This document shows positions 16-39,381 of a stretch of 39,381 nucleotides of DNA, one piece after another. Made by a program: the position numbers and the translations under genes. The stretch lies in NCBI GenBank assembly GCA_000826855.1, contig JTLS01000036.1, positions 1-39,381 of the forward strand. Reading direction: 5' to 3'. How positions within the stretch are numbered: the first letter of the stretch is position 1; every line of letters starts with the position of its first letter. This DNA is from Basidioascus undulatus. Its lineage: Eukaryota. Under the pieces are notes generated by a model, which saw nothing but the letters and a program-made list of their open reading frames with translations, did no database searches and was not told the origin of the DNA.

Positions 16-946
16 CTAGCTACTTAGCATCTGTTCTTCCCTCCCGTTGTTGTTTCCCTGCCCGCCTCCGAACCCGCCGAGGCCGCCTCCCGACCCGAAG
101 CCCTGGCTGAAGCCACCACCTTGCCCTTGCCCCCCGCCCGACGCGAAGCCGAACCCTCCGCCAGCGCCCCCACCTTGGCCGAACCCGCCGCCTCCGCCCG
201 CACCGAACCCGCCGCCTCTGCCCGCACCGAGCCCGCCGCCCTGTCCTCCCTGCCCATCGTCCTGCCCATCTCCCCCAAAATCACCATCGTCGCCATTATC
301 GTTCCCATTCGCATCGCCCCCATCGTCCTGCCCATCATCCCCTCCAAAGGCCCCGGAGCCTTCGAAGTCCCCCCCTTGTCCCTGTCCGAATCCACCGCGC
401 CCTCCACCGTACTCCTTGCCCTTCTTGCCGTAGTGCTTGATGACAGGCTTCTTGTAGTGCTCCTCGCGGTGCGGCTGGATCTCCTTCTTGTGGAGCTGGA
501 GGACAGGGTTTAATAAGCTACAGTGAAGTTTCAAGTGCCATACATGGAAGATGGGACGTACCTCGTGGCCGCTTTGCTCAGTGTGGTGCTTGAAATGCTG
601 CAGCTCACAACCACGTCAGTACAGACTCAACTTCGTCAACACTAGTAGAAAAACCATCGCACGTTGTGCTCTTTCCCCTTCTTGTCGTGGGGCGTCTTGT
701 GCTATTTGTGGGTGTGACATCAGCCTGGCTCTGTGGTACATTGATTAAAGGGGGGCGGACCTTCTCATGCCCATGCTTCTTGTGCTCATGGTGCTTCTTC
801 CCATCTCGCCTCTCCACAAAGCCGTTGAGCTCGTGAGGCGGCCCTCCTGGGCTTCGGGCTGAGAGATGGTTCTCTTTGATTGGGGACGCCCTCGCCAAGC
901 TGGTTGCGGAGACGGCGAGGACGGCGAGGAGTAGAGCGCTTTGCAT
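16..946 (-). CDS. Secreted low-complexity protein: signal peptide, dibasic site, His/Lys-rich middle, Gly-rich (GGGFG/GQG) C-terminus; about 246 aa, 4 exons
   Basis: Exons 946-761, 701-663, 597-562 and 495-16 join in frame through three phase-0 GT-AG introns. Protein begins MQSALLLAVLAVSATSLARASP, continues ERRDGKKHHEHKKHGHEK|HKTPHDKKGKEHN|HFKHHTEQSGHE|LHKKEIQPHREEHYKK and ends in a Gly-rich tail. Confidence 0.85.
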
Positions 947-1055
947 GTTGGGGGTTGCGCAAGCAAGGATGCGGATTGGTGGAGAGTGTGCTCGGAGAAG
1001 AGAGGATGGAAGGGATGGGTGGATGAGATTTTGGTATTAGGCGGATACCGGGTAG

Positions 1056-1063
1056 TTTATATA
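1056..1063 (-). promoter_or_regulatory. Putative TATA box (TATATAAA) of the secreted Gly-rich protein gene
   Basis: Consensus TATATAAA on the minus strand, about 110 nt upstream of the ATG at 946. Confidence 0.55.
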
Positions 1064-1559
1064 CGGAGGACGAGGTTGACCCAGTCCGCTTTTGGCTGCA
1101 GGGCAGCGATAAGTGAACGAACAGCCATCCTGCGTCGCACGCCTGCCGCTACCGGCTTCAAACCTTTCTTGGGGTTGACCTACTCTGCTAAAATGCGGTG
1201 ATGTTTTCCGAACGTACCGATGTGCTGTCCATGGGCGGTATGCCAATGGAAGGCGACTTGGTAAAAGCGGTGCAGCCTCATCCGAACGCGGCGGAGACAA
1301 GCCTGAGTTCAACAAGTAGAAGGCCGCCGCGCCTGGGCAGTTCCTACCGTTCAACACGACTTGCACAGACGCTCATGGCTGTTCGTAAGCGTCGAGTACC
1401 TTTCTGTTCGTATTCAGACTATGACCAAGAACGGTCGCTCTGGCAGGCGAGGCCGCAAGCGTCAACATCCGCTCGCTGCTTAATGCACCATGCACTGCCT
1501 TCGTTCCATGCCATAACCGGGTACGACAACCTTCATATGCCTCAAGGAACCCGCAGCCA

Positions 1560-2489
1560 TCACAGCGCCCCACTCTTCCATTGCTCCTCCCTCTCGCCCA
1601 GCACCAGCAGCGCATCCTCCAACACCTCCTTCGGCCACAACTCCGCCTCCCTCACAACGTCGCAGTCCGGATCGCACAACCTCTCACAACACCTCCGAAC
1701 CAGCCTCTCCCACGTCCGCTGCTCCAACTCCGTCTGATCTGGTATGATCGTCGCGCCGCGCTCCGGAAAGCGAAGACGCCGCGCGCGGGACTGTGCGCGT
1801 TCAAGGAGTGCCAGTGAGCGGTGCAGGTGCTGGAGGTGCTGGTTGTCGGTCGCTAGGACGGAGTGGAGGATGTCGGAGGGGGTGCGAGGAGGAGTGGTTG
1901 CGGTGCTGGATTTTTTGGTGGAAGGAGGGGAAGATGCTGGCGAAGGGGGGAGGATGGGTATGCAGAGTCCGTTGTGGTGCAGTGCGTCTGTGAGCGCATT
2001 TTGCAAGTGCGAGAGCTCGTCGGACGTGAGGGCGAGTGTAGGCGGCGGAGACGGGCTGGACAGCGCCGGGGAGCGGTAGCCGTTCTTTACAGGCGAAGGT
2101 ATTTTGAAGAAGGATGGGGATCCGAGGCGCATGGTGCTTTTGGTGATTGAGGGAGACGAGAGCGAAGACGGAGAAGGAAGACGACCCACAAAATCGCGCT
2201 GCTTTTCAAGCTTTTTGCCCAGCCTTGCGGACCTTTCGCTTTGAATATTATGCCCAGCGTATCCCGCCATCGCGCACATTCCCTCGCTCCTCATGAGCGC
2301 GGGCGAAGGAAGGGTTCGGAAGCGGCTTCCCAGATTGTCACGCGGGGCGCTTGCGCAGGCGCGAAAAGCGAAACTCCCGCATGAGGATGAAACGCTCATG
2401 CTCGTCGCATCCTGGCGCATCTCTCTGAAGAGAGCGCGCTGCAGAATGTCCGCATGTTTATCAGAAGGCACGAAGGTCTGAACGGGCAT
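1560..2489 (-). CDS. Hypothetical protein (309 aa), Ser/Pro-rich middle and predicted helical C-terminal region
   Basis: Long uninterrupted ATG-initiated ORF with protein-like C-terminus (LQHLHRSLALLERAQSRARRL...LWPKEVLEDALLVL) and a TATATAAA about 100 nt upstream. No family recognised. Confidence 0.6.
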   Translation of the reverse strand: MPVQTFVPSDKHADILQRALFREMRQDATSMSVSSSCGSFAFRACASAPRDNLGSRFRTLPSPALMRSEGMCAMAGYAGHNIQSERSARLGKKLEKQRDFVGRLPSPSSLSSPSITKSTMRLGSPSFFKIPSPVKNGYRSPALSSPSPPPTLALTSDELSHLQNALTDALHHNGLCIPILPPSPASSPPSTKKSSTATTPPRTPSDILHSVLATDNQHLQHLHRSLALLERAQSRARRLRFPERGATIIPDQTELEQRTWERLVRRCCERLCDPDCDVVREAELWPKEVLEDALLVLGEREEQWKSGAL

Positions 2490-2586
2490 CGTGAACCTCC
2501 TATCACAAAGCCGGGCAACTTGTGTAAATGCATGTCAAAATCTCGAGGAAACACTGCAGCTGTCAGTTGAATGTGTACCACCCGCG

Positions 2587-2594
2587 TTTATATA
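2587..2594 (-). promoter_or_regulatory. Putative TATA box (TATATAAA) of the 1560-2489 gene
   Basis: Consensus motif about 100 nt upstream of the ATG at 2489. Confidence 0.5.
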
Positions 2595-3583
2595 GCACAA
2601 GATTAAGCTCCCCGGCGACATAGATGTTATACAGAAGTCAAACAGATTATTCCTTCCAAGTGAGGGCATGGATGAGCCTTGACGAGCAATGTTTTTGCCG
2701 CTTGAGGCAGCAGGCTACGCTGTGTACACACAGCTTGTTTGCCTTGTTACTGAGATCGAGATGACCAACTGAAGTTTACGTAGACTCATTGCTGGCTACT
2801 ATACCGAAGGCGGGCACTAGCGCTGAGGGGCTCCAGGCCTCGGAGAGCTGAGTCTGTGAAACCATACGCCTCACCTACTTGATCAACGTTTGTGCTTTCG
2901 AAGAGGCTTTCAAAGCTTAGAAGACAACGAGTGTACTCCTTCTAGTCGTCCTTCATTTCGAGCCCTTTCTCTTTTCACATCACTGAGTCACTCTTGACAG
3001 GCTCGCACAGGGCCGGTCCTCTCGTGAGGCCGTCCTTGTTGAAGGAGTTGAGGGCGTTTCGCAGCCTACACAGTCAGACTGGATCTGTAAAGGAGAACCT
3101 GGAGCTTGCGGATATGCAGAAAAATTGTGGGACGAGGGGTGTGACGAGGAGGCCACAGAGAGTGTGACCGCACGGGAGGTGAAGCGTGGAGCCGCTACAA
3201 ATATTGTGAACAGTGACGCTAAATTGCCAGTGTAGAAGCAACTTTCTCTCCCCAGTCCGTGAATATGAATTCAAAACGGAGTCGCACTAATTGGCTGCCC
3301 ACGAACAACAGTAGTCGTTGGTCGGCTGCACTGCACAAATGCCGAAATGTTCGCTGATAAGCAGTCGTCCTCCTGACCGGCAATACGTACAGGCCAAGGC
3401 CGTAAACTCAAATATCGGAACGAGGGATCAATCAAAAGGATGCTGGCCTTCAACAGAAATCGGATCACAGCCCCGAGGCTGTGCCTGTGCCTGTGCGATA
3501 AGCCAGGAAGCCGCTGCCCGTGATTCAGGATCACAACTTGGTCCCGCACAACGTTCATCCCGCCCCATCTCCTTTCTCACCCA

Positions 3584-4474
3584 ATGCACTACCTCGAATC
3601 CAAAAAAGCTCACACTACCCGATCTGGTTCCAGAGCTCATTCAGATTGATATCTGCTCCTTTCTCGAACCTAGCGACATTCGCGTTTTCTCGCTCGTTTC
3701 ACACCATGCCCGGGCTCTCGTGCTGTCGAGTCTCTTCGGCAGAACAAGGACGATGGTCCTCAGCTCGCGCACAGTGGGAGTGGATTGGACGTTGGGATAC
3801 TGGGGAGGAATTAAGGTGAACGATAAGATGCCACCACTCCGTTGACAAGAGCGCTTCAGGTGGTAGGCTGAACATAAGCGACGATCGTCCAGATCGCTGC
3901 GCATCGAAGCGGACTACTGGCCAACATTTCGGCATTCGTCCACCCCTGATCACTCTATGAGGCTGTTCCGCGCCCTCAGCTCACTGCACAACCTCGAGCG
4001 CCTCTCCTTCCGCAGTACGGAGGGCTCGTGGCCTTTTCGGATCTCCTCGCCACCGTGTCCTTCAGCCAACGTCTTTCCAAGCTGCGCACACTCGAGCTCA
4101 ACATTCACTGGGAGTCTGTTCTGGACTAGGTACCACGTTGAGGCACGTGTGGGTAAGACCACACGCATGGCTCCAGACGACTGCAAGAATTCCGTGCGGC
4201 AGACTTGGAAGGTGCTCAGGATTCCAAGAGCGCATCCAGTTGCGGACAGTGCACCCGGAGCAGGTCAAGCGGACTCGTGTGCATGACCGGGACCTCCCCC
4301 CTTCCATTCACCTCCCCTGCTTGCATCGACCAAGGCTCAACTCGCTCGTACTCACCCTTTAAAAGCACCAGTCCCGGGGTGTGTTTGCTGCAGATGGTCG
4401 AGGTTGAGGATGAAGACGCCGAAACGGAAGCAACGTCTGAGCTTCACCTGTCCTCGTGGCTTTGTCACACGTGA
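3584..4474 (+). pseudogene. Degraded F-box / LRR-like (RNI-like) protein gene
   Basis: F-box-like motif LPDLVPELIQIDICSFLEPSDIRVFSLVSHHARALV. Downstream LRR-like pieces (LSSLHNLERLSF, LRTLELNI, PRLNSLVLTL) lie in different frames with stops. The ATG at 3584 is out of frame with the F-box. Boundaries approximate. Confidence 0.55.
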
Positions 4475-7111: not shown

Positions 7112-7711
7112 CGTCAAGTCAGGAGAAGCTCGCGTGTATCTGCAAGGTTTGAGAGTAAGGGCGGTGTAATGACTTGAGTGAAATAAGCCCGGCAAAAAAT
7201 GAGATACACCTGACGGAGGAGCGAGATGGGGTGGTTGCTTATCGCACCATGAGGGTCACGGTCTTGGAGACTGCGTGCTCCCTTGCACTTTCCGTTGTCA
7301 GCCGCACGCGCTCTCAACCACGTGAAGTTCCTGACACACAAATACCACCCAGAGCTTCCATTCATATCAAAATGGTTTGGGAAGGTTCTGAAGCTGGGAC
7401 ACAGGCAAACGACAGGCTCCTGCTTTGGTTGCAGTCAGCGCCGTGTCGGCGCTCTCGTCTTGGTCCCTCAGTGAATTGGCATTTGAGAGAAAGCAACGAG
7501 GTTCAACTATGCGGTAGCACAGGAATATTGTCTTGCAACCTGCATTAGTGAAATGGTGAAAACCACACTGTTTGGCACCCGACTATTAACTGCTAATCAG
7601 CATGACTTCATTGCCTGCTTATCGCCGACAGCGACCACTCCGGCCTTCCCACCGTCGCGTCTTCGACGTTGCCTTCCACGTTCACAACGCCCAACCCAAA
7701 GCATTCTCGTC

Positions 7712-8667
7712 ATGGCCGCATCCGCTAACGCCGGCGCCCTGCGCCCTCTGACCGCTCCGCCCGCTTCGATTTCCCCGTCCGACCACAGCACCCTAACCTC
7801 GGCCACTCCGTCGTCGTTCACGACCATTCCGCCCGTCCTGCGCCGCCTGGAGGACAACGTGCGGATTACATTCGAGCCGGCGCCGGAGGGCATCAATGTT
7901 GAGGGGGAGGGAATGCTCTTTGTCACCGAAGCGTGCGTCTTACCTCCGCTATACTATGGGAGGTGGAGCTGACGGACGCGCGGGCGACAGCGAGCTTTCG
8001 TTCTTCACCAACGCTCTGACCGGATTCGCTCTCCCGTATCCTTCCATCACCCTTCATGCGGTCTCCCGCGACCCCGAGGGCGGCGCGCCCTGCATCTACT
8101 GCCAGCTCGATGAGCGGGATCCGTCTCTACCGGAGCCTGCGGAGGACGAGGAAATCGAGACCCGGGAGATGCGGATCGTTCCCTCCGATCCTGCTGCGCG
8201 TGCGTCCGTTTTCTAATTATCAAGTGTCTTTGCTGAAAGCTCTATGACTTCGTAGTGGAGCCGATTTTCGAGGCTCTGTCGTACTGCGCTTCGCTGCACC
8301 CGGACAAGTACGGCAACCAGTCTGACGAAGAGCGCTTCGACGACTTTGGCGGGATGCCGGGCGCGGACGACGAGGATGAGGCGGACATGACTGAGCTCGG
8401 CCGGGTGCGCAGCGATTTCGCTACACCCTCCACGAGGTTCGCGCCGTATTAATTCTATTCGATTCGTGCTATGTCCCTTCAAAGGCTGCGCTGGCCCAGT
8501 TGGAGTCGATCATCGAGTGGCCGGCTGGCATGCGGCTACCGCGGGATGAAGAGGCGGAGGGAAGTCAAGAAGGGCAGGGTGCTCGGGAAGACGAGCAGAA
8601 GGAAGAGGGCGCCGCGCTGCTTACCAATGGCGCGACCAGTGACAAGCCTTTGCCCAATGGCATCTGA
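7712..8667 (+). CDS. ICln / Lot5-like (Voldacs domain) Sm-assembly chaperone homologue; two possible C-termini (stop at 8452 or 8667)
   Basis: Exons 7712-7932, 7991-8199, then 8256-8404 plus 8485-8667, or 8256-8452 with the last intron retained. Family motifs GMLFVTE, ITLHAVSR, PCIYCQL, IFEALSYCASLHPD, acidic patches, TELGR|AALAQLESII. Confidence 0.85.
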
Positions 8668-9187
8668 ATGCAACATTGTGAACTGTTGTGTTGGGTGTTC
8701 CGAGGCGGCTAGATCTCCTAGTTTGAAGAAAGCGTCGACATCGTCTGTGTTCTTAGTGCGTTGGATCTGCGGAGCGGTCACCATTGAAAGGACAATCTTG
8801 CCTTATGGTCGTTTCAGTGAAGAGTGGCAATACAGTGGATGTAAGTTACAGCTTATTGGAGAACTGAAATTTTGTCACCGCAAACAAGATGCGGTACTTG
8901 AGCTAGTGCGGTTCGCGTTGCCAGCTATTCGTAAAGAAGCAGACCAGTTGATGACAGCGTTACTTGTATTTAGATGTAGAAGAACAACGTGAAGGTAGCG
9001 CAGAAAAGAGGTATTGGGGCGGGGTGGACAGAACAACAAGCAACGCACTATGCGATGGGGCCAAAACGAGGAAAACGACGGATACTGAACTAATGATTGA
9101 CTGCGATAAGTCCACTCTAAGCACGCTGCGCCTCAGCCGTCCGGACCTCAGAGGCCCGACCGAACCCGTCACCAGATCCCGTCCACT

Positions 9188-15204: not shown

Positions 15205-16377
15205 ATGACCCTTCCCGACTGGTATTCAAACCCGGCCGCTCGCAGCTGGGCCAGCCTCCGGGCGTCTTCTGACCATCCCTCGGTCTTCCACCGCGGTGTA
15301 CTTCCAAACTACTCCCAAACCCCCCTCATCGATCTCCCCTCCGTCGCCGCTGAGCTCGGCGTCGCGCGCGTGCTGCTCAAGGACGAGTCCTCCCGCCTCG
15401 GCCTTCCGGCGTTCAAGATCCTCGGCGCGTCGTAGGCGACTTTCCTCGCTCTCTGCTCGCGGTTCTCGCTCGATCCAGATTCGGCGACTCTCGACGAACT
15501 CCGGGCGCGCTGCGCGCAGGCCAGTCCGCCTCTGACGCTTCACGCTGCGACGGACGGCAACCATGGCCGAGCAGTAGCCAGGATGGCACACCTTCTGGGT
15601 CTCCGGGCCCGGATCGTCGTTCCCGCTGCCGTCACAGCTCGGTCTAGGGCTTTCATCAGTCCGAGTGCGCGGACGTCGTCATCGTCAACGACGACTACGA
15701 CGCTGCCGTCCGCGCCGCCGCCCGCGCCGCCGCTCGCGCGCCGAGGAAGCCGGCCCGGACACTGCGCTCCTCATCCAGGACACGGCGTGGGACGGCTATG
15801 AGGACGTCCCGATGCAGATTGTGTCCGGGTACACGACGCTCTTCACCGAGATCGACGAGCAGCTCGCTGCGCTTTCCAGTTCTTCGCCCTCGCTCGTCGT
15901 CGTCCCTGTCAGCGTCGGCTCCCTCGCGCACGCTGCAGTCCTCCACTACCGCTCCTCCTCTCGCTCCTCCGACCCGCCTTCGATTCTGACAGTCGAGCCA
16001 GCCACCGCGGCATGTATTCTGCCAGCTTCTCGGCCGTCAAGGCCACGTCCATCGCCACGGGTGAGACGATCATGCTCGGCCTTAACTGCGGCACCGTGTC
16101 GTCCCTTGCCTGGCCCGACCTCCTCGCCGGCATCGACGCTGCCATCGCCATCCAGGATCGCGAGGCGGACAAGGCCGTGCACGACCTCGCCCAGCTGGGC
16201 GTCTCTTCGGGACCGTGCGGCGCGGCCACGCTCGCTGCACTGCGAGGCGTCCTTGGCGGTCCGCATGCTGCCAAACGCCGCGCGACCCTCCAACTTGGGT
16301 CCGACGCGGTGGTGGTCATCGTCAGCACTGAAGGGAGCCATGTGTATTTGGATACGGCGGTGGAGGAGGCGTCTTGA
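15205..16377 (+). pseudogene. Diaminopropionate ammonia-lyase-like PLP enzyme (fold type II), intronless, disrupted
   Basis: Motifs TPLIDLPSVAAELGV..VLLKDESSRLGLPAFKILGAS, ATDGNHGRAVARMA, LIQDTAWDGYEDVP, VGSLA, ETIMLGLNCG, GPCGAA, VSTEG. In-frame TAG at 15433-15435 (expected Trp) and frameshifts near 15657, 15740 and 16020. Confidence 0.85.
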
Positions 16378-17280
16378 AGCTTAACGGAGCAATGTGATAT
16401 TTGGCTCGCTGAAAGCTGTGCGCACTGCGTGACAAATTCATGCGATTGCGCGCTGCGATGACCTGCTGTAGCTCTTAACAGCATTTATCTTGGCCTGAGG
16501 GTTTCAGAGAAAGTCAGTACAATAATTCAGACGGCAATCCCCCCCCCCCTTCCACGTCCACGCAATGCGCAGAGCGAGTCAATGCTGCGATGGCGCCCGA
16601 GATGCCCTCTTTCATGCCAGTCTGTTCCACAGTTTGCTATCCGACTGTCATAAATGTCCGTCTTCGTACGCATCCACTCCACTCCTACGTAGGCCTCCCA
16701 TCCAGTCTCAAGGCAAGTCTGAACGAAAGACAATCACGCTCAACCCGGTACAGCACACCTCGACCTTTGCATGGTGCAGTAGGAACAGACAGAAAAGAAG
16801 CGAAGCGGCGGCAGCAGCAGATGAGCACAAAGGAAAATTCAAGAAAGGTGACAGCAGGTAGACCACCGAGCAGTTGAAAGAGACGAGAGAAACGAAGCAT
16901 GAAGACGATACGGTTGTTGTGTAGTGAAAGAGATGATTCAACGCCAACGTGAGTTGTTTGTTGTGTGTGCGGTGTGGTGAATAAAAGCGGTAATAGAAAG
17001 CGACGAAGCAAGGAAATTGAGCGGAAAAGAAAAAGAAGAGCAGTAAGCGGCAGCAGCGTTGCAATAGTTTCCCCCCCTCCGGTACCCCAGTCACTCTCCC
17101 CCCCGAACCCCTCCGGTTGACCTCCCTCCCCGAAGCCCTTCCCCCACCCGTCTTCAAATCCGTTTGACCCAAATGCGAATGAGTCCCCGTTCGACCCTAT
17201 CCCGACTTCTACCCAGCCTAATTACGCCTCGTCCTCCCTTTGTTCCTCACCTCAACCCGCCGCCGATGCCCGGTTCCGCC

Positions 17281-29524: not shown

Positions 29525-32500
29525 ATGCCGGCGCAGGAGAAGGCAAAGAAGCTCAAGTTCAAAGACAAGCTCGTCCAGAAGGGTCAGTCCTACCGGATTC
29601 CGACATCGGGACTGCATGCTGAGATCTGTGCGAGTAGGCGTTCAAACGAGCGAGCTCCTCCGGAGATTGAAGGTGAGCTTTTTCTGAGGCTTCTTCTGGA
29701 TCGTGTTGCTTATCTCCAAGGCAGGCTCTCCATGACGAGCTCGCCGAGATGGACCAGGAGACGGTGGACAAGACCAGCCTGTCCGCCGTCGCCAAGCAGC
29801 TCCTTGATAAGTCGATTCTCCTGCACAAGGACAAGGCCGTGAAGGCGCTTGCAGCCTGCGGCTTTGTCGATCTGCTTCGTCTCTACGCCCCAGAAGCGCC
29901 CTATACCGCCCACGAGCTCAAGGTGAGCCATCAATTCCGCTGGGGGAACAATTAGGCCTTTGGGTTGACGGGGGCATTGTGCCATTCAGGACATCTTCAC
30001 CTTCATCTTCCGCCAACTTCAATCGCTATGGAAGCCTCCGAAGGGCACCAAGCAGTCCGAGGTCCCCAACTACAACCAGTACGCAATGTCCTTTGGGCGC
30101 CCGCTCTCCTCGTCGTGCCGCACCAGGCTGACGCGTGCTGTCAGATACTACTATCTCGTCAACAGCATGGCCGACGTCAGCAGCGTTGTGCTCGTTTGCG
30201 ACGTTCCCTCCCCCGACGACCTCATCATTGAAATCTTCCGCAACTTCTTCGACGGCATCCGACCCGATACGTCCGGGCGGCTCGAAGGCTACATGGCCGA
30301 TATCCTCTCGCAAATCATCGACGAGTGCATCATACTTCCGCAGGACGTGCTCGAGATCCTCCTTGCACAGTTCCATGAGAACAACATCGTAGGCAGCGCA
30401 CGTATCTTCTGATGAACATGCTGTTGACAGCTCAGGGGCAAACAGAAGCTCAATCCGGCGGCACATCAGCTCGCGGTGGCGGTCTGTAATAAGACGAGCG
30501 AGCGGCTTCAACGCAACGTTTGCCAGGTACACATCTCCTGTCATAAACGCCGGCCAGACCGAAGGCGCTCACCGCTCTGACACAGTACTTCACCGACACG
30601 ATCATGCAAATATCGCACTCGTCGCCGACCGAGGAGGAGATCGAGGACGTCGAGTCGGCGCACAAGCTCATCCGCGCCATCCACCAGTCCGCTCCGGGCT
30701 TGCTCCTCAGCGTCATCCCGCAGCTCGAAGCCGAGCTCACGTTCGACGACGTCACCCTCCGCCTCATGGCGACGAAGACGCTGGGCGAGATGTTCGCCGA
30801 CAAGCCCACGGGGCAGAAGGCGGGCGGCGAGCTTGCTCGCGGATACCCGCAGACGTGGAAGGCGTTGCTAGGCCGCAAGGTGGACAAGGCCGTCCAGGTC
30901 CGCGTCGCGCTCGTCGAGGTGTCGAAGCAGATCCTTGCAAACCACCCGCAGCTGGGGAACGATTTGAACGGTATGTGAAGATCACTTTCGCAGCGGCGGT
31001 TATTGAAACTGTTCGGATTCGGGTTCTCAGAGCTGCTCAAGGTCAAGCTCATCGACCCCGACGAGAAGGTCCGCGCCGCGACCTGCCGTCTCTTCTCCGA
31101 GATCGACTACGAGACCGCCATGCACCACACGCACCTCGATCTTCTCCAAGCTCTCGCAGAGCGCTGCAAGGACCGCAAGGTAGCTCGAGGTCTGTTCGGC
31201 CTTTAATTGCTCAGATACTGATCCAAATGGACACGCAGCACTCGGTGCGCGCCGAAGCGTTCAAGGCACTCGGCCGTCTCTTCGATCTCGCATACCCGGA
31301 GATGTGCGTACTTCTCGTGCGATCGCAGATTGTTCGATTGTACTTATATGTGTTACACAGCGAGAGCCACGACGGCGCCGCGATCCAGCAATTTGGGTGG
31401 ATCCCGCAGGCGATCATTGCACCGGTAGCCATCGCGCTTGACCGGGAGACGGCCAGCATTCGGTGAGCGCGACCGCTGATTGCCATATTCAAGCAAATGC
31501 TAACTGACGCCCCGTTGCAGAGTGCTTGTCGAGGAGACCGTCGCGCAGCAGATTGTCCCTCTCCCATCGCGCGCCGACGACGAGGCCGCCTGGGTCGACC
31601 GTCTCCTCACCGTGCTGGCGGGAATGGCCGATATCGGCCCAATCCTTAACATGGCTCGGCTGAGCCCGTCGTGCGTTCAGTTCTAGATATCTTTAGAAGA
31701 GCGCGGTGCTGACCCCGTCCGGCGCCTTCTAGAGCTCATCAGCTCTTTGAACGTTTCGTCAAAGCGTCGGAGAATTACAACGTTTGCATTAAATCACCCA
31801 CCTTCAGCTTTACGCACGAGTTGACCCGCAGTTGACCGACAGGGCGGCGTTATCGACGAGAACGAGAAGGAGGTCACCGACAAGCTGAACCAGATCACTC
31901 GTGCCCTCGCTGGTACGTTACGCCGCTCTACGGCTACAGCATCCACACTCACACTCAGTCTTTGAGTCTCGGCAGCCTCATTTCCCGACCCCTCCAAGGC
32001 GCTCGGCGACCTCCAGACGTTCTATAAGGCGAACGAGGTCCGCACCTACAGAATGCTTCGGACCATCATGGATCCGCAGACCGACCTCAAAACGCTCATC
32101 AAGACCAACGTAAGCAAAAATTGTTCTAACCTCAGTTCAATCGCGCGTGCTTATGGATTGCTTTTCCTGCAGGCCGAGCTCGTTCGTCGAGTCGAGCAGA
32201 TCTCCTCATCGATTGTGGACACCTTCAAGACCTTCATCCGCCGCTGCAGCTACCCGCTCATCAACCGCTCCTCTGTCTCGGCGCTGGTCAAGCGTCTGCA
32301 GCGCACGGACGGCACCGACGATGCTGAGAGCATGGCTGCGCGCGCGAAGACGATTCTGGAGGCGATCGCCAAGTGGTCGCCTCACATGTTCCGCTCGCAC
32401 GTGCATGAGCTCGCGAAAGCCATCGCCGACGACAAAAACGAGCGCCTCGTCGAGGTCTGCCTGCGCGCGCTGGCGTCGGTCGCGAGGGTCGATGCGTCTG

Positions 32501-34889
32501 CTGCGCCTACCGATCGGTTTGTCTGCGTTATCCGTGCCCTCCTTTTCCAGCTGCTCACAAGGAAGGCGCCTCTAGGCGAGCTGTGGAACGGGCCAAGCAC
32601 TATGTCCTCGAGGGCACCGCGCTGCAAGCCAAGTTCGCGACTCGTTTGCTGGCGCATACGCCTGATGGCGATGACGTCCTGCGGGAGATCATCGAGGTGC
32701 GCATTTGCCCTTGACCTGTCGGGAGCGCGTATCGACGGCCGCTGAGTGGTTGGCGTCGCCAGACGATCGCTGAGGGCATCACCGACGCCGAAGGGGACGT
32801 TCTTGCGGCGCGGACGAGCGTCCTCGCCGAGACCGCGAAATCGGCGCGCGAGGTGTTCGAGTCGCAAGCCGAAGTCATCGTGCCCTTCGTCCAAAAGGAC
32901 CTTTTGCACCGTACAGACGAGGTTCGCATCTCGTTCACTCTCAACCCCGTATTCTCGCCATTACTTAAACAACCACGCGCTGCGCAGAAGACCGCGGGCG
33001 AGGAGGAGTGGCTCGAAGATGGCGAGATCGACTCGCTTACGAAAGCGAAGGTTTCCGGGCTCCAAGTCCTGACCGCCCGCGCGCTCGCGCACAAGGACGA
33101 GGAGACCGCGCCCGACACCGCAAAGCCCGTCTCTCAGCTCCTCCTTCGGCTGTTGGAACACGAAGGCGCGTTCGAGGCGGATTCAGGCTGGAGGTACGTC
33201 CATACCTGTTTTTAATACGGCAGCTCGCAGCGTTCACCCTTACGCGATCGTTGCAGCAACGGCGTCCGTACCCGTCTTCGGCTGAAAGCGGGAACCTGCC
33301 TTCTCAAACTCGCGGCGCACCAACCATACGACCGCGAGGTGATTGGCCGCGAGATCAATAAGATCGCACTCGTCGTCCAGGTGAGTTTATTCGGACTTCC
33401 GGGTTTGCCAACCTGCGATCGTTGACATTCATGTGCTGTCGGGTAGGACGAGCTGCCTCAAGTTCGACACGCTTTCGTCACCAAACTCACGCGCTACCTT
33501 TCCATCGGTCGGCTTGGCTACCGCTGGCAAATACTACCATTCGTCGCTGCGAATGACCCCGACAAAGAGATTAAGAATCTTGTGAGGCTTGTGTTTACAA
33601 CCCTGGCTTTTTCATCCTTTCTGATGCCCTCGCGTTCGCATGACGCTCAGGCCCGCTCATACGTCGTCAGCTTGTCGCGGAGAATGCCGCAGCGTTCGTT
33701 GTTTCTTACACCAAGTCAGACTCCCGACTAACTTGGTTTCGCACTCCAGAACAACGACTGGCGGCGTTCGAGCTGGGCTTCCTCCGCTTGCTTCATCTCA
33801 TCGCGCACCATCCCGACTTCGACGCAACTGAACCTGAGGAGGTTCGGATGTCCGCTGCGTAGGCTCCGCGTTCAACCTTCCGCGTCCCTTCAGGTTCGTT
33901 GCTGATACTCCGCACAGCTACATCTACTTCTACCTCGAATGCATCGCCACGCCCGAGAACATCACCCTGCTCTTCCATCTCGCTGGCAAGCTCAAGACCG
34001 TCCGCGACGCCGACTCTCCCGCGATGTCTGAGGTTCGAGATTACGTTGCTGATGGCTGCGCCAGATCCCCATCTTACCATACCTTTTTTCGACAGAACCT
34101 GTACGCCGTCAGCGACCTCGCCCAGCATATCACCAAGGCGGTGGCGAACGCGCGCAAATGGCCGCTCGGATCGTACGCCGGAAGCGTTAAGATGCCATCC
34201 GACATCTTTCGGCAGTTGCCGAGCGCCGAGGCGCAACGCGAGGTGATTCATTGTCGCCGATTTGTCTCTGCAACGAAGCTGACACGCCGTTCATGTGTTC
34301 AGATCCAGAAGCGCAGCTTCCTCAAGAACGACGTTCTCGAAGCGCTGAAGACCTCCAGCAAGCCCAAGCCTGCTCGTTCTTCCCCGAAGGTGCGCTAGGC
34401 GTCAGCCTCAATTACAGCCAGAGGTTGAACTAACTCATCGTCCCTGCTGCAGTGCAAGGCGAAGGCGGATGCTGACGGGGAAAAGCCGACGAAGACGAGG
34501 AAACGACCTGCAGCCAAGTCGCTGTCCAAGTAAGTCTCGCGATCTCAAAAGTCCATGACTCAGGCTCACTTTCGGTTTACATAAGACCACGCCGCAAGAA
34601 GCGCGCCGCCAAGGCCGAATCGTCCGACGAGGACGTGTCCGAGGCGTCTGGCACGGAGGACGAGGACATGGACGCGGAATCGGCTGCGGCGTCGTCGGAG
34701 TCGGAGGAGGCCGAGCTTGACGAGGATGGCGAAGAGAAGCTCGGTCGAGGCGGGAGGCGGAAGGCGGCACGTCGGGCGGCTAAGGCCGTGACGAAGAAGA
34801 AGCGACCGCAACCGAGGCCGGCCGTGAAGTCGAACGGCGCCAAGGCGAAGTCTCCTCCAGCAGATTCCGACGAGATGGATGAGGACTGA
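29525..34889 (+). CDS. PDS5: Sister chromatid cohesion protein Pds5 (HEAT repeats), more than 20 introns
   Basis: KLKFKDKLV, ELLRRLKALHDELAEMDQE, LHKDKAVKALAACGFVDLLRLYAPEAPYT..ELKDIF, VIPQLEAEL, RLMATKTLGEMF, KLIDPDEKVRAA, LLHLIAHHPDF, basic/acidic C-terminal tail. The junctions checked are in frame. Confidence 0.95.
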
Positions 34890-37412: not shown

Positions 37413-39381
37413 TCATCTGCACTCGTAGCTGCCCGCCTCGTCCGTGCTCCCCTTGCCCTTATACCGCGCCTTCAGCGGGTAAGGGCACCACAGCCTTGTC
37501 CGCTCCGAGCCGTCGACGGGGCCGATCGCCTCGATGCGGTCGGGCGTCTGCCCGTCCTCGACCCACGCGCGGAGAACGTCGAGCCCGAAGAGCAGCGACG
37601 GCGCGTGGTCGAGCCCGTGCGCGGGGCCGCAATGCCCCGTGCACGCGCCGAGGAAGAGGCGGAAGAACTCGGACTGCTCCGAGGCGGACAGGCCGAGGTG
37701 GGATTGGACCGCTTCGTAGTACTCGATTGGCCAGTACGCGGAGAAGTACGAGTCCGCCCAGCCTGCGTGGGGGAGAGAGGGGAGGGGAAGTTCAGCTTGG
37801 AAGAGAAGGAGAGAGAAAGGTAGAATGGCAATGCACCTTGCGTGACGAGCAGCTTCCCGCCCCTCGCCTTGAACGCGGATAGGTCCGGGTCGATCGAGTC
37901 GAGGGGCTCGCCCGCGAGCCTGGCGACGTGCCGGATCTGGCTCGGGGTGAACGTGAACCAGTCCATGCTGAAGTCCAAGTTCTTGTACACGAGGTTCTGG
38001 ACGAACGGCGTCGCGAGCGTGTCGGCGAGCGTGGTCTGCCACAGCCAGCCGGCCTCGCTGCCCTTCGGCAGGCCTGGGTACAGCTGCTGGCCATCCACCT
38101 GCGGGCCCGCGTAAAGCTTCTCGACAGTCGCAATCTGCGTCGGGGAGAGGCACTTGGCCGAGTCGGGCGACTGGTTCGGCGCGCAGAGGAGCGTCTTCAG
38201 CGAGTGCGTGCACGTCGGCGGGTCCTCGAGGAACTTGTCCGCGACCCCGTCCGAGAGCGTGTCGCACGTGGAGAGCACGGAGGAGGTGATCATGTCCAGG
38301 TGCGCTTGCGTGAGCGACGGGTCGGACTGCAGCGTCCGGGCGTTGTACAGCGTCGCGAGGAAGATGTGCGACCAGTAGGCGCCGGGCGAGCCGGCGATGA
38401 TGCCTGGAGGAAGAGAAAGGGGGAGAAACGTAAGGAGAGGAGGCAGCGCGACAAGCATGAAGGAAGACCACCGTCAAAGTCTTCGGGGTATAGTTGTGCA
38501 AGGGCAAGACCTTGGGCGCCGCCGGTCGAGCAGCCTGAGAGAACAAGGCCAGGGGGTGAGTATCCGCTCTAAGCATCCAGCAGCACTTCCCGCCCAGCCC
38601 AACACCCTCCCAACGATCCCTGTGCCCGTCCTCCCTCTGTCCGGGCACTCACCCTGGAAGTAGCTCTTCTTGACGTCCTTGCCGTAGTACTGGCGGATGA
38701 ACTCCTTGCTGACGATCGAGAAGACGTGCACCGAGTGCTTGATCCAGTACAGCGTCTGGCGCTCGTTGCGCAGGAAGGGCACCTTGATGCCCGGGCCAGG
38801 GGCGAAGTTCTTGGGGGACGTATGGCCCGAGTCGGACGAGCCGACCGCGTACCCGCGGAAGACGCCGTAGAACTGGAGGTTGTGCTGGATGAGGCCTGCG
38901 AGACCAGAGTTGCCTATTGCGGGAAAGGGGGTTGAGAGGATAGGAGGAGGAAGGAGGAGGTGGAGTGACGATAGAAAGGAAAGATTAAGACGAACCAGTT
39001 GCGTAGTAATCCCCATTCCACTCATCCGGCAGCCACAGCTCGAACCCGACCTCCACGTCGCGCTCGGCGCGAATGACGCCTTCAACACGGCAGAACGGCT
39101 TGTCGTTGTAGTGCTTGCCGTCGGTGAACGTCTTCTTGGCGTGGTAGGTCGTCGCCGTCACGCGGGTCTCGGGGTACCGCGCGCGGCGGAGGAAGTCGCG
39201 GCAGGCGGCCTTGCCTGGGGGCTGCAGCGGCGCGGTGTCCTCCTGTTCGGGCGGCGGATCGGAGGAAAGGGAGGAGGGGGACTTGTTGTTGTTCAGGGAG
39301 GAGGCGGGGCGGCGACGCGAGGAGGAGAAGGAGGAGTTGGAGTAGGAGGAAGGAGGAGGTGGAGTGACGATAGAAAGGAAA
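37413..39381 (-). CDS. Tannase / feruloyl esterase family hydrolase, 5' end truncated by the window edge
   Basis: FCRVEG, FELWLPDEWNG, GNSGLAG, GYAVGSSDSGH, SYFQ|GCSTGG, YPEDFD|GIIAGSP, DLSAFKARGGKLL, GWAD, FFRLF..TGHCG, RTRLWCPYP. The CS-D-HC catalytic arrangement is intact. Confidence 0.93.
38945..39381. repeat. Exact 38-bp direct repeat (38945-38982 and 39344-39381)
   Basis: aggaggaaggaggaggtggagtgacgatagaaaggaaa occurs inside a tannase intron and again as the last 38 nt of the window. Confidence 0.9.

Follow-up and report, generated by a model that had tools for sequence, protein, structure and literature searches.

The last intron of the ICln gene on contig JTLS01000036.1 of Basidioascus undulatus (assembly GCA_000826855.1, positions 1 to 39,381, hereafter the window) is probably the point at which two real, selected C-termini of the ICln protein are produced (intron 8405..8484). 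The gene is a basidiomycete ICln/pICln of the Voldacs family (Pfam PF03517); the literature describes pICln as a chaperone by which Sm proteins are held for PRMT5 and passed to SMN. Splicing of the intron would join ...TELGR to exon 4, resulting in the canonical pICln end, in which a variable, acidic tail follows a short helix (AALAQLESII). Upon retention, translation would proceed 15 codons into the intron and stop, and the helix and acidic tail would be replaced by VRSDFATPSTRFAPY-COOH, a predicted disordered linear motif with an invariant G-R-V-R...R-x-x-P-Y. For both intron products, conservation of the coding type extends over Cantharellales, Russulales, Polyporales, Boletales and Agaricales and to the more distant window, and the comparison of sequences shows both endings to be maintained by purifying selection at the amino acid level across the Agaricomycetes and the window. 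Dual coding of the intron is well supported by these comparative data and by one RNA-derived contig.

The whole gene model was derived from reading frames and homology to relatives, and all of its features lie on the forward strand. Exon 3 (8256..8404; LEPIFEALSYCASLHPD..., an acidic linker, ...DMTELGR), which aligns with the relatives and would be shared by both isoforms, ends in GAC ATG ACT GAG CTC GGC CGG with the Arg codon CGG at 8402-8404. The 80-nt intron 3 that follows, putatively dual-coding and alternatively retained, starts with the 5' splice site GTGCGC (8405..8410), which also reads as the codons Val-Arg and carries C at +6 instead of the usual T. Its retained reading comprises 15 codons past 8404 (VRSDFATPSTRFAPY) and the TAA stop at 8450-8452, and lies inside the stop-to-stop open reading frame (ORF) 8237..8452; together with the preceding L-G-R this tail (8405..8452) resembles a proline-tyrosine nuclear localization signal (PY-NLS). 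The atypical 3' splice site AAG (8482..8484) is, by eye, the sole AG between the stop and exon 4. Exon 4 (8485..8667) is supported by a profile match, tblastn and alignment with relatives. Its frame, inside ORF 8395..8667, extends over 60 codons from 8485 (AALAQLESIIEWP...PNGI) to TGA at 8665-8667 and consists of the AALAQLESIIEWP helix and a 47-residue acidic variable tail. Since the 80 nt of the intron leave a remainder of 2 on division by 3, exon 4 can be reached solely via splicing. A previous sequence-only reading had placed the phase-0 donor GTGCGC at 8405, the read-through stop at 8452, the AAG acceptor at 8484 and the end of a 60-residue exon at 8667, all of which are correct.

A query composed of exon 3 and the tail (64 residues) matched 15 longer proteins, all at 100% query coverage. 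All 15 end in ...ELSEVGRVRSDFxNxxR[FY]xPY, apart from one G-K-V-R and some mid-tail variants. Named PY-ended models are from Suillus lakei, Trametes coccinea, Boletus edulis, two Cubamyces, Auriscalpium vulgare, Lactarius quietus and Russula ochroleuca; the further proteins stem from unnamed sources, either metagenomes or assemblies. When 1.84 billion representatives were searched exhaustively with HMMER, 38 proteins had E<=1e-3, in 36 of which the match reaches the last residue, and the fetched full sequences of the remaining 2 likewise end in the PY tail. A contig scan contributed 69 metagenome loci with exon 3 and the tail, resulting in 70 sequences including the window. Invariant columns of the tail are G, R, V, R ... 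R, P, Y (alignments A1, A3 and A5 for R, P and Y), and S, D and N, which lie outside the PY-NLS pattern, are conserved as well. Tail lengths of 15, 16 or 17 residues differ by whole codons, and the stop follows immediately after PY in 69 of the 70 sequences. With 17 residues including G-R, the window tail (…FATPSTRFAPY) is nearest to unnamed proteins such as P0016 (…FSTPSTRFQPY), whose exon 3 is almost identical to that of a Rhizoctonia solani model. It is also similar to the longer proteins P0042, P0049 and P0052 (…FQTPDSRYRPY), and the nearest Atlas cluster of P0042 is Basidiomycota. An ICln ORF, P0033, contains an additional ...QLLPEYISAYHWAHLLRYLEQ... within the acidic linker ahead of ELSEAGKVRSDF..., which looks like an extra in-frame exon 3 intron of some lineage.

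In relatives, tblastn with the exon 4 peptide of the window identified AALAHLESIIYDP..., ASLAYLESIIEDP... and AALEYMESIIDDP... some tens of bases past the PY stop. Of the 70 sequences, 65, namely the window and 64 metagenome loci, extend at least 150 nt downstream; the downstream sequence of L019, L025, L027 and L029 was too short, and these loci were left out of the exon 4 count. A script found YAG followed by AAL.[HY]LE.II..P in 63 of the 65, and in the other two (L008, L009) CAG/GCTGCGCTTGCACATTTAGAG is visible by eye. The homologous intron was found in 64 of the 70 sequences with lengths of 57-140 nt, which are congruent to 0, 1 and 2 modulo 3 in 26, 16 and 22 cases, respectively. Hence, the frame of exon 4 relative to the tail is not fixed, and the exon has to be joined via GR|GT...AG|AAL. 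It begins with 13 conserved residues (A1, L3, E7 and P13 invariant; A2, L6 and I9 at >=90%) and continues as a variable acidic stretch. The window retains the four invariant residues as well as the three at >=90%. A hidden Markov model (HMM) of exon 4 from 33 relatives, with the window row excluded, had one significant match in the 1232 ORFs obtained from all six frames of the window; with an E of 2.8e-5, this match begins precisely at 8485, and the next-best ORF had an E of 0.73. None of 306 candidates reached E<=10 when longer proteins were searched with the exon 4 peptide of the window by itself, so that the relatives' profile was needed, and the peptide matched no Pfam family. In L017 (726-) and L064 (1016-) the exon 4 frames comprise 97 and 86 residues compared to the usual 30-48, possibly as a result of stop loss or a frameshift. 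About 40 nt past the PY stop of L025 and L027 exon 4 begins with CAG/GCACATTTAGAG (AHLESLI), two codons shorter than AALAHLE; both contigs end soon after.

Codon statistics were obtained from 41 unique 16-residue tails, the 15- and 17-residue tails including that of the window being left out. De-duplication by exact sequence left 51 unique of the 70 sequences, and many loci are closely related. Over the 12 codons past GTGCGC the mean entropies at codon positions 1, 2 and 3 were 0.51, 0.51 and 1.04. Nonsynonymous (pN) and synonymous (pS) differences, taken as pairwise counts uncorrected for shared ancestry, which weighs against their use as evidence of selection, amounted to 0.178 and 0.777 (saturated) in the tail, 0.161 and 0.763 in the first 13 codons of exon 4, and 0.097 and 0.74 in the last 10 codons of exon 3. 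Mean pairwise amino acid identity of the tail was 0.665 in frame 0 compared to 0.39 and 0.40 in the two alternative frames. For the conserved Arg that precedes [FY]xPY, the 41 tails use five different codons (CGT, CGC, CGG, CGA, AGA) and the window uses the sixth, AGG. Four codons are used for the tail Pro and both for Asn (AAT 21, AAC 20), and the aromatic position is either TTY or TAY. As a control, nucleotides 7-42 of intron 2 showed a pairwise identity of 0.30 versus 0.72 for the tail (35 unique loci) and could not be aligned. The same applies to the portion of intron 3 past the stop, which is 12 to 95 nt long and reached an identity of 0.33.

Among the gene models and RNA-derived sequences of relatives, both forms are represented. 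NCBI models joined as ...ELSEVGR/AALAHLESII... were obtained with the exon 4 profile, and 14 of the 19 sequences fetched have this junction. Four of the remainder are unspliced ORFs in another frame, and in a Hericium model the junction deviates slightly. The spliced junction is found in models from four species of Russula and from Lactifluus, Gelatoporia subvermispora, Leucocoprinus, Leucoagaricus, Arthromyces, Rhizoctonia solani and Botryobasidium botryosum. Within the genus Russula, R. ochroleuca is annotated as PY-ended and R. brevipes as spliced; Botryobasidium belongs to the Cantharellales and Suillus to the Boletales. The public ICln models of the Agaricomycetes are thus divided between the two endings, and each model conceals the other isoform.

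At the RNA level, the cDNA-like metagenome contig L018 is 99-100% identical to L016 in three blocks, from which introns 1 and 2 of L016 (56 and 59 nt) are exactly absent. The blocks run uninterrupted through intron 3 and exon 4, and the contig encodes a complete PY-ended protein of 206 residues in one ORF. This contig would be derived from RNA that had been spliced except for intron 3; a processed copy is less likely. Five proteins from ORF-only sources (P0001, P0005, P0053, P0057, P0058) read through introns. The same sources contain intron-free full-length proteins, of which P0014 ends in PY and P0065, P0067 and P0070 are fully spliced; these presumably come from transcripts. The sequence-only reading had described a dual-coding last intron with a C-terminal switch and mentioned RVRSDF...R(F/Y)APY ends in basidiomycete annotations. 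Such ends were verified in 15 out of 15 relatives found with exon 3 and the tail, and the switch was supported at the comparative level by the conservation of both peptides with a coding signature, by the two kinds of gene models and by the contig retaining intron 3.

Several findings weigh against two functional endings. In L069 (321-474) the tail ends in ...SRYAAF, thus AAF and not PY, and the upstream exon 3 frame contains stops. L067 has TTG in place of the stop after PY. L018 could be an incompletely processed transcript instead of a mature isoform, and the RNA-level evidence for both isoforms comes from relatives and not from the window's own organism. As to the sequences concerned, P0067, a fully spliced protein, is near-identical to L069, which is possibly a poor contig or a decaying copy. 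In L067 (1344-1593) the 120-nt intron is open and in frame, so that the tail, the intron and exon 4 form one ORF; this may be a natural variant or a sequencing error.

The resemblance of the downstream exon to the metazoan pICln helix, also proposed by the sequence-only reading, was substantiated by a spliced relative. The Gelatoporia protein P0062 aligned with human pICln (PDB 9e3a_L) at an E of 1.3e-18 over query residues 50-214 and unbroken across the exon junction. Around the junction 'letf.tgdea.aelsevgraalahlesii' is paired with 'IPTFyTYEEGlSHLTAEGQATLERLEGML', with SHLTAEGQATLERLEGML opposite aelsevgraalahlesii. In the alignment of a PY-ended protein with human pICln the match ends ahead of the tail. 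Judged from this collinearity, the spliced ending is the ancestral, canonical end of pICln. The homology to the human helix is visible in the full-length alignment only, as the exon 4 profile had no match among PDB sequences at E<=10. AlphaFold2 (AF2) runs on alignments of the relatives predicted a confident pleckstrin homology (PH)-like core in both forms. For the spliced form a helix was predicted at residues 191-203 (...VGRAALAHLESII) in a block with a predicted local distance difference test score (pLDDT) of about 64, with disorder beyond it. For the PY-ended relative P0004, the pLDDT was below 50 over residues 163-206 and about 42 in the tail, with no secondary structure in this region.

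The Voldacs/PH-like domain and the acidic linker are shared with human and other metazoan pICln (CLNS1A; a methylosome subunit and Sm assembly chaperone; PDB 9e3a, 8g1u, 1zyi, 4f7u), and the fungal spliced form aligns helix on helix through the exon 3/exon 4 junction. Human pICln contacts PRMT5 via the PRMT5-binding motif (PBM) and P4I (residues 205-213). The PBM, GQF[D/E]DA[D/E], was defined for chordates and is not known to define fungal ICln. Some fungal relatives have a similar sequence in exon 4 (14 of 46 unique peptides and 10 of 15 annotated spliced proteins; examples are GQFSDGEE, from Russulales-like loci, and FEDAE, from models of Agaricales). In contrast to the human protein, PBM and P4I have no detectable counterpart in exon 4 or the tail of the window. 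Its exon 4 contains no [FYLI][DES]D[AG][DE], i.e. no PBM-like sequence; thus, this motif cannot explain the switch here, and a universal gain or loss of the PBM, which holds for some lineages, was rejected as an explanation. A relationship of the tail to residues 205-213 of human pICln was rejected as well: the tail profile had no PDB match at E<=10 and the position is not collinear. Independently of exon 4, the proteins P0042, P0049 and P0052 (269-278 residues) carry GAFEDAEE, GAFDDAAE or GEYDDADE about 20-40 residues upstream of the tail. These sequences resemble the PBM and are located in the part common to both possible isoforms.

What the tail does is less certain than its existence. In Suel et al. 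2008 (PMC2408616), a PY-NLS is defined as a disordered, overall basic segment of 30 residues that has a hydrophobic or a basic motif on its N-terminal side and R/K/H-X2-5-P-Y on its C-terminal side. The hydrophobic pattern given in the same paper (PMC2408616) is Phi1-G/A/S-Phi3-Phi4-X7-12-R/K/H-X2-5-P-Y/L, where Phi3 and Phi4 may be R or K. The C-terminal element is present in the window (R-F-A-P-Y), and the complete hydrophobic pattern fits 42 of 43 unique tails, including that of the window (L-G-R-V...R-F-A-P-Y), and 42 of 51 database proteins. The cargoes Hrp1 and Nab2 of Kap-beta2/transportin and yeast Kap104 have C-terminal R-X2-PY-like ends (RNNGYHPY and RFNPL, respectively; PMC2408616). 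The ICln tail shares with them its disorder and a full match to the hydrophobic-subclass pattern. It differs in its acidic context, its length of only about 20 residues and its position outside the basic-subclass pattern. A transportin/Kap104-type PY-NLS sending part of the ICln pool to the nucleus is a reasonable interpretation at the motif level, which we put forward tentatively and at somewhat below an even chance; otherwise the tail may be another short binding motif.

Indeed, it is a serious possibility that both isoforms are real and the tail is no import signal. It could then be a different short linear motif, such as a binding site for a methylosome/SMN-complex partner or for Sm proteins or a C-terminal degron, or the switch could simply be a regulated loss of the helix and the acidic tail. 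Several observations that count against nuclear import agree with this. Over the 30 C-terminal residues the 43 unique sequences have a median net charge of -4 and the window has -5, where the rule demands an overall basic segment; the corresponding median over the 20 C-terminal residues is +1. The basic-subclass pattern fits none of the 43 tails, nine of the 51 database tails, which are more distant (E[ST]GRV...), lack a hydrophobic Phi1, and the tail profile retrieved no PDB sequence. According to PMC2408616, yeast Kap104p bound basic PY-NLSs and none of 6 predicted hydrophobic PY fragments. The conservation of S, D and N beyond the PY-NLS pattern also points away from import, and in those lineages in which the PBM-like sequence is confined to exon 4 the switch would alter PRMT5 binding. 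Set against this, a PY-NLS is defined by precisely the positions that are invariant here, namely the C-terminal R-X2-P-Y and the upstream G-R-V, the hydrophobic pattern fits nearly all unique tails, the tail is predicted to be disordered, no alternative partner emerged, and the tail profile had no PDB match. Of the PY-NLS-like end proposed by the sequence-only reading, the R-X2-PY motif, the hydrophobic pattern and the predicted disorder therefore stood, whereas the overall basic rule and the basic-subclass pattern did not. In the full-text literature searched, the scope of which did not extend to subscription-only papers, neither a PY-ended ICln nor alternative C-termini of fungal ICln were described.

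Much less probable is the explanation that only the spliced protein is functional, that the first 45 nt of the intron are conserved as unusual splicing signals, that the PY frame is a by-product and that the PY-ended models are artefacts. Part of the conservation of the tail does reside at the nucleotide level and therefore provides no evidence for the peptide. GTG CGC (with the following AG), GAT and TAC TAG AC are nearly invariant as nucleotides even at third positions, and the stop is TAG in 66 of the 70 sequences. The Asp codon at intron positions +10 to +12 (8414-8416 in the window) is GAT in 35 of the 41 unique tails and GAC in none, the rest being AAT or GCT, unlike the other Asp/Asn codons of the tail, which use both synonymous forms. 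Furthermore, the collinearity with human pICln belongs to the spliced form, and, since gene callers often close a model at the first in-frame stop, the PY-ended ones could be artefacts of annotation pipelines. We consider this explanation very unlikely in view of the three-base periodicity in the middle of the tail, the excess of synonymous over nonsynonymous differences (0.78 vs 0.18), the use of all six Arg, four Pro and both Asn codons, the alternation of F and Y, the whole-codon insertions and deletions, the nearly universal stop right after PY and the identity of 0.67 in frame 0 as opposed to 0.39-0.40. Moreover, L018 keeps intron 3 alone. Neither a conserved RNA fold nor an Rfam family was found that would account for the nucleotide-level conservation: RNAalifold predicted no structure in the intron part of 41 aligned sequences (0.0), the minimum free energy (MFE) z-scores of six single introns ranged from -0.14 to +1.55, and positions 7600-9000 of the window had no Rfam match at E<=1.

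The splice signals of intron 3 differ from those of intron 2. Among the 70 sequences its donors are GTGCGC (60), GTACGC (9) and GTGCGG (1), and T at +6 does not occur in any of them, although CGT would be synonymous. Intron 2 of these loci has diverse donors, most of which follow the consensus; of 44 unique sequences, 38 carry T at +6. The acceptors in the 64 sequences with exon 4, including the window, are CAG (54), TAG (9) and AAG (1, the window). A yTnAy branch motif is present 5-45 nt before the 3' end of intron 2 in all 35 cases, often as CTAAC or CTGAC. In intron 3, there is no yTnAy past the stop in 21 of 35 relatives, and the shortest copies (57-58 nt) have just 12-13 nt from TAG to the acceptor. 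A branch-site-like TTAAT (8449..8453) was read by eye in the window without a script as the sole yTnAy motif of intron 3; it overlaps the stop, and the putative branch A at 8452 would lie 32 nt upstream of the acceptor. At the equivalent place the relatives have the nearly invariant TAC TAG AC, in many cases with a pyrimidine tract directly behind it. The branch region thus appears to overlap the end of the tail ORF, as TAC-TAG-AC in the Agaricomycetes and as TTAAT in the window. Donor and branch signals seem to be held sub-optimal, which is consistent with a built-in balance of splicing and retention. That these conserved non-consensus signals keep splicing inefficient and both isoforms are made for this reason has, in our estimation, about an even chance.

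ICln serves spliceosome biogenesis; therefore, a link between splicing efficiency and small nuclear ribonucleoprotein (snRNP) assembly is directly testable. A feedback loop, in which the isoform ratio would be sensitive to spliceosome supply and would act back onto snRNP assembly, is speculative and rather unlikely. A more elaborate version, to which we give slightly less credence still, holds that the weak last intron has been a sensor of spliceosome capacity since the ancestor of the Agaricomycetes, or perhaps of the Basidiomycota. Efficient splicing would yield the helix form in the cytoplasm and limiting splicing the PY-NLS form in the nucleus, an export/import toggle feeding back on snRNP supply. 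The L-x-x-L-x-x-I-I spacing of the helix presumably resembles a leucine-rich export signal. Indirect support for such feedback comes from the conserved non-consensus donor and branch region and from a study in fission yeast (PMC11178228), in which loss of ICln reduces splicing efficiency genome-wide.

From the same finding (PMC11178228) it follows that a splicing-sensitive ICln intron could give homeostasis. It might do so by regulated unproductive splicing, where the retained transcript is degraded or held in the nucleus and just lowers ICln output, with a tail devoid of a function of its own; conserved weak splice signals would suit such a regulatory intron. For that purpose a stop would suffice, yet a peptide of 14-15 residues with a fixed C-terminal PY is under purifying selection. 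According to the exon-junction rule, a stop without a downstream exon junction should not trigger nonsense-mediated decay. Intron 3 is the last intron and no exon junction lies past its stop, hence such decay is not expected, and the probability left for unproductive splicing is very slight. Finally, that the gene in the window simply ends in PY* and the downstream 60-residue frame is a chance ORF or decayed relic is hardly credible: long ORFs are frequent in all frames of the GC-rich window, the AAG acceptor is atypical and exon 4 alone matched no database protein or Pfam family, but the profile of 33 relatives matched just at 8485, the invariant and nearly invariant positions are kept, and the GC content remains at the coding level (0.58-0.61) to about 8700 and is 0.46-0.49 thereafter.

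To our knowledge, alternative splicing yielding two selected proteins is considered rare in fungi, with few cases conserved across orders. In Ustilago, glycolytic enzymes are targeted to peroxisomes by alternative splicing. The dual-coding ICln intron is, on the comparative data, a further example of conserved fungal alternative splicing or retention that gives two proteins or switches a terminal targeting signal. In SKI7/HBS1 (PMC3597508), one fungal gene is likewise reported to give two proteins via alternative splicing kept over long evolution. The gene and the splice mode are different there, since in ICln the retained last intron would supply the alternative C-terminus and the stop. Malate dehydrogenase of Yarrowia lipolytica (PMC3372373) resembles ICln in that splice choice sets a short terminal targeting signal. 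In that case the signal is peroxisomal, in contrast to the nuclear, PY-NLS-like candidate in ICln, a gene of spliceosome biogenesis.

The remainder of the gene model is as follows. Exon 1 (7712..7932) has its ATG at 7712 and ends in phase 2; start codon and boundary were assigned from relatives (MP.V...TP.SF...PPVLR...), and a Pfam search with this exon by itself gave no family. Intron 1 (7933..7990; 58 nt, donor GTGCGT, acceptor CAG) was deduced from the frame and from ...FVTEA/ELSFF... continuity as in relatives. Exon 2 (7991..8199) encodes the core of the Voldacs/PH-like domain and alone matched PF03517 above the gathering score (E 8e-15, 55.6 bits, cut-off 22.1). Intron 2 (8200..8255; 56 nt, donor GTGCGT, acceptor TAG) has a position common to the relatives. 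Exon 3 corresponds to the C-terminal part of the Voldacs profile (positions 97-134) with an E of 2.1e-4 and 21.9 bits, slightly below the cut-off of 22.1.

Neighboring genes in the window have no evident connection to ICln. These are a weak fragment of PALP, a pyridoxal phosphate-dependent enzyme, below the Pfam cut-off (15578-16381, forward strand), a PDS5 cohesin-associated protein (30393-32742, forward strand; Pfam E 1.8e-34) and a tannase/feruloyl esterase (37413-38645, reverse strand; Pfam E 2e-19). On the cDNA-like contig L018, an uninterrupted ORF of at least 911 residues (902-3637, minus strand) is convergent with ICln; it is rich in S, T and P and contains acidic runs and a coiled-coil-like C-terminal part.

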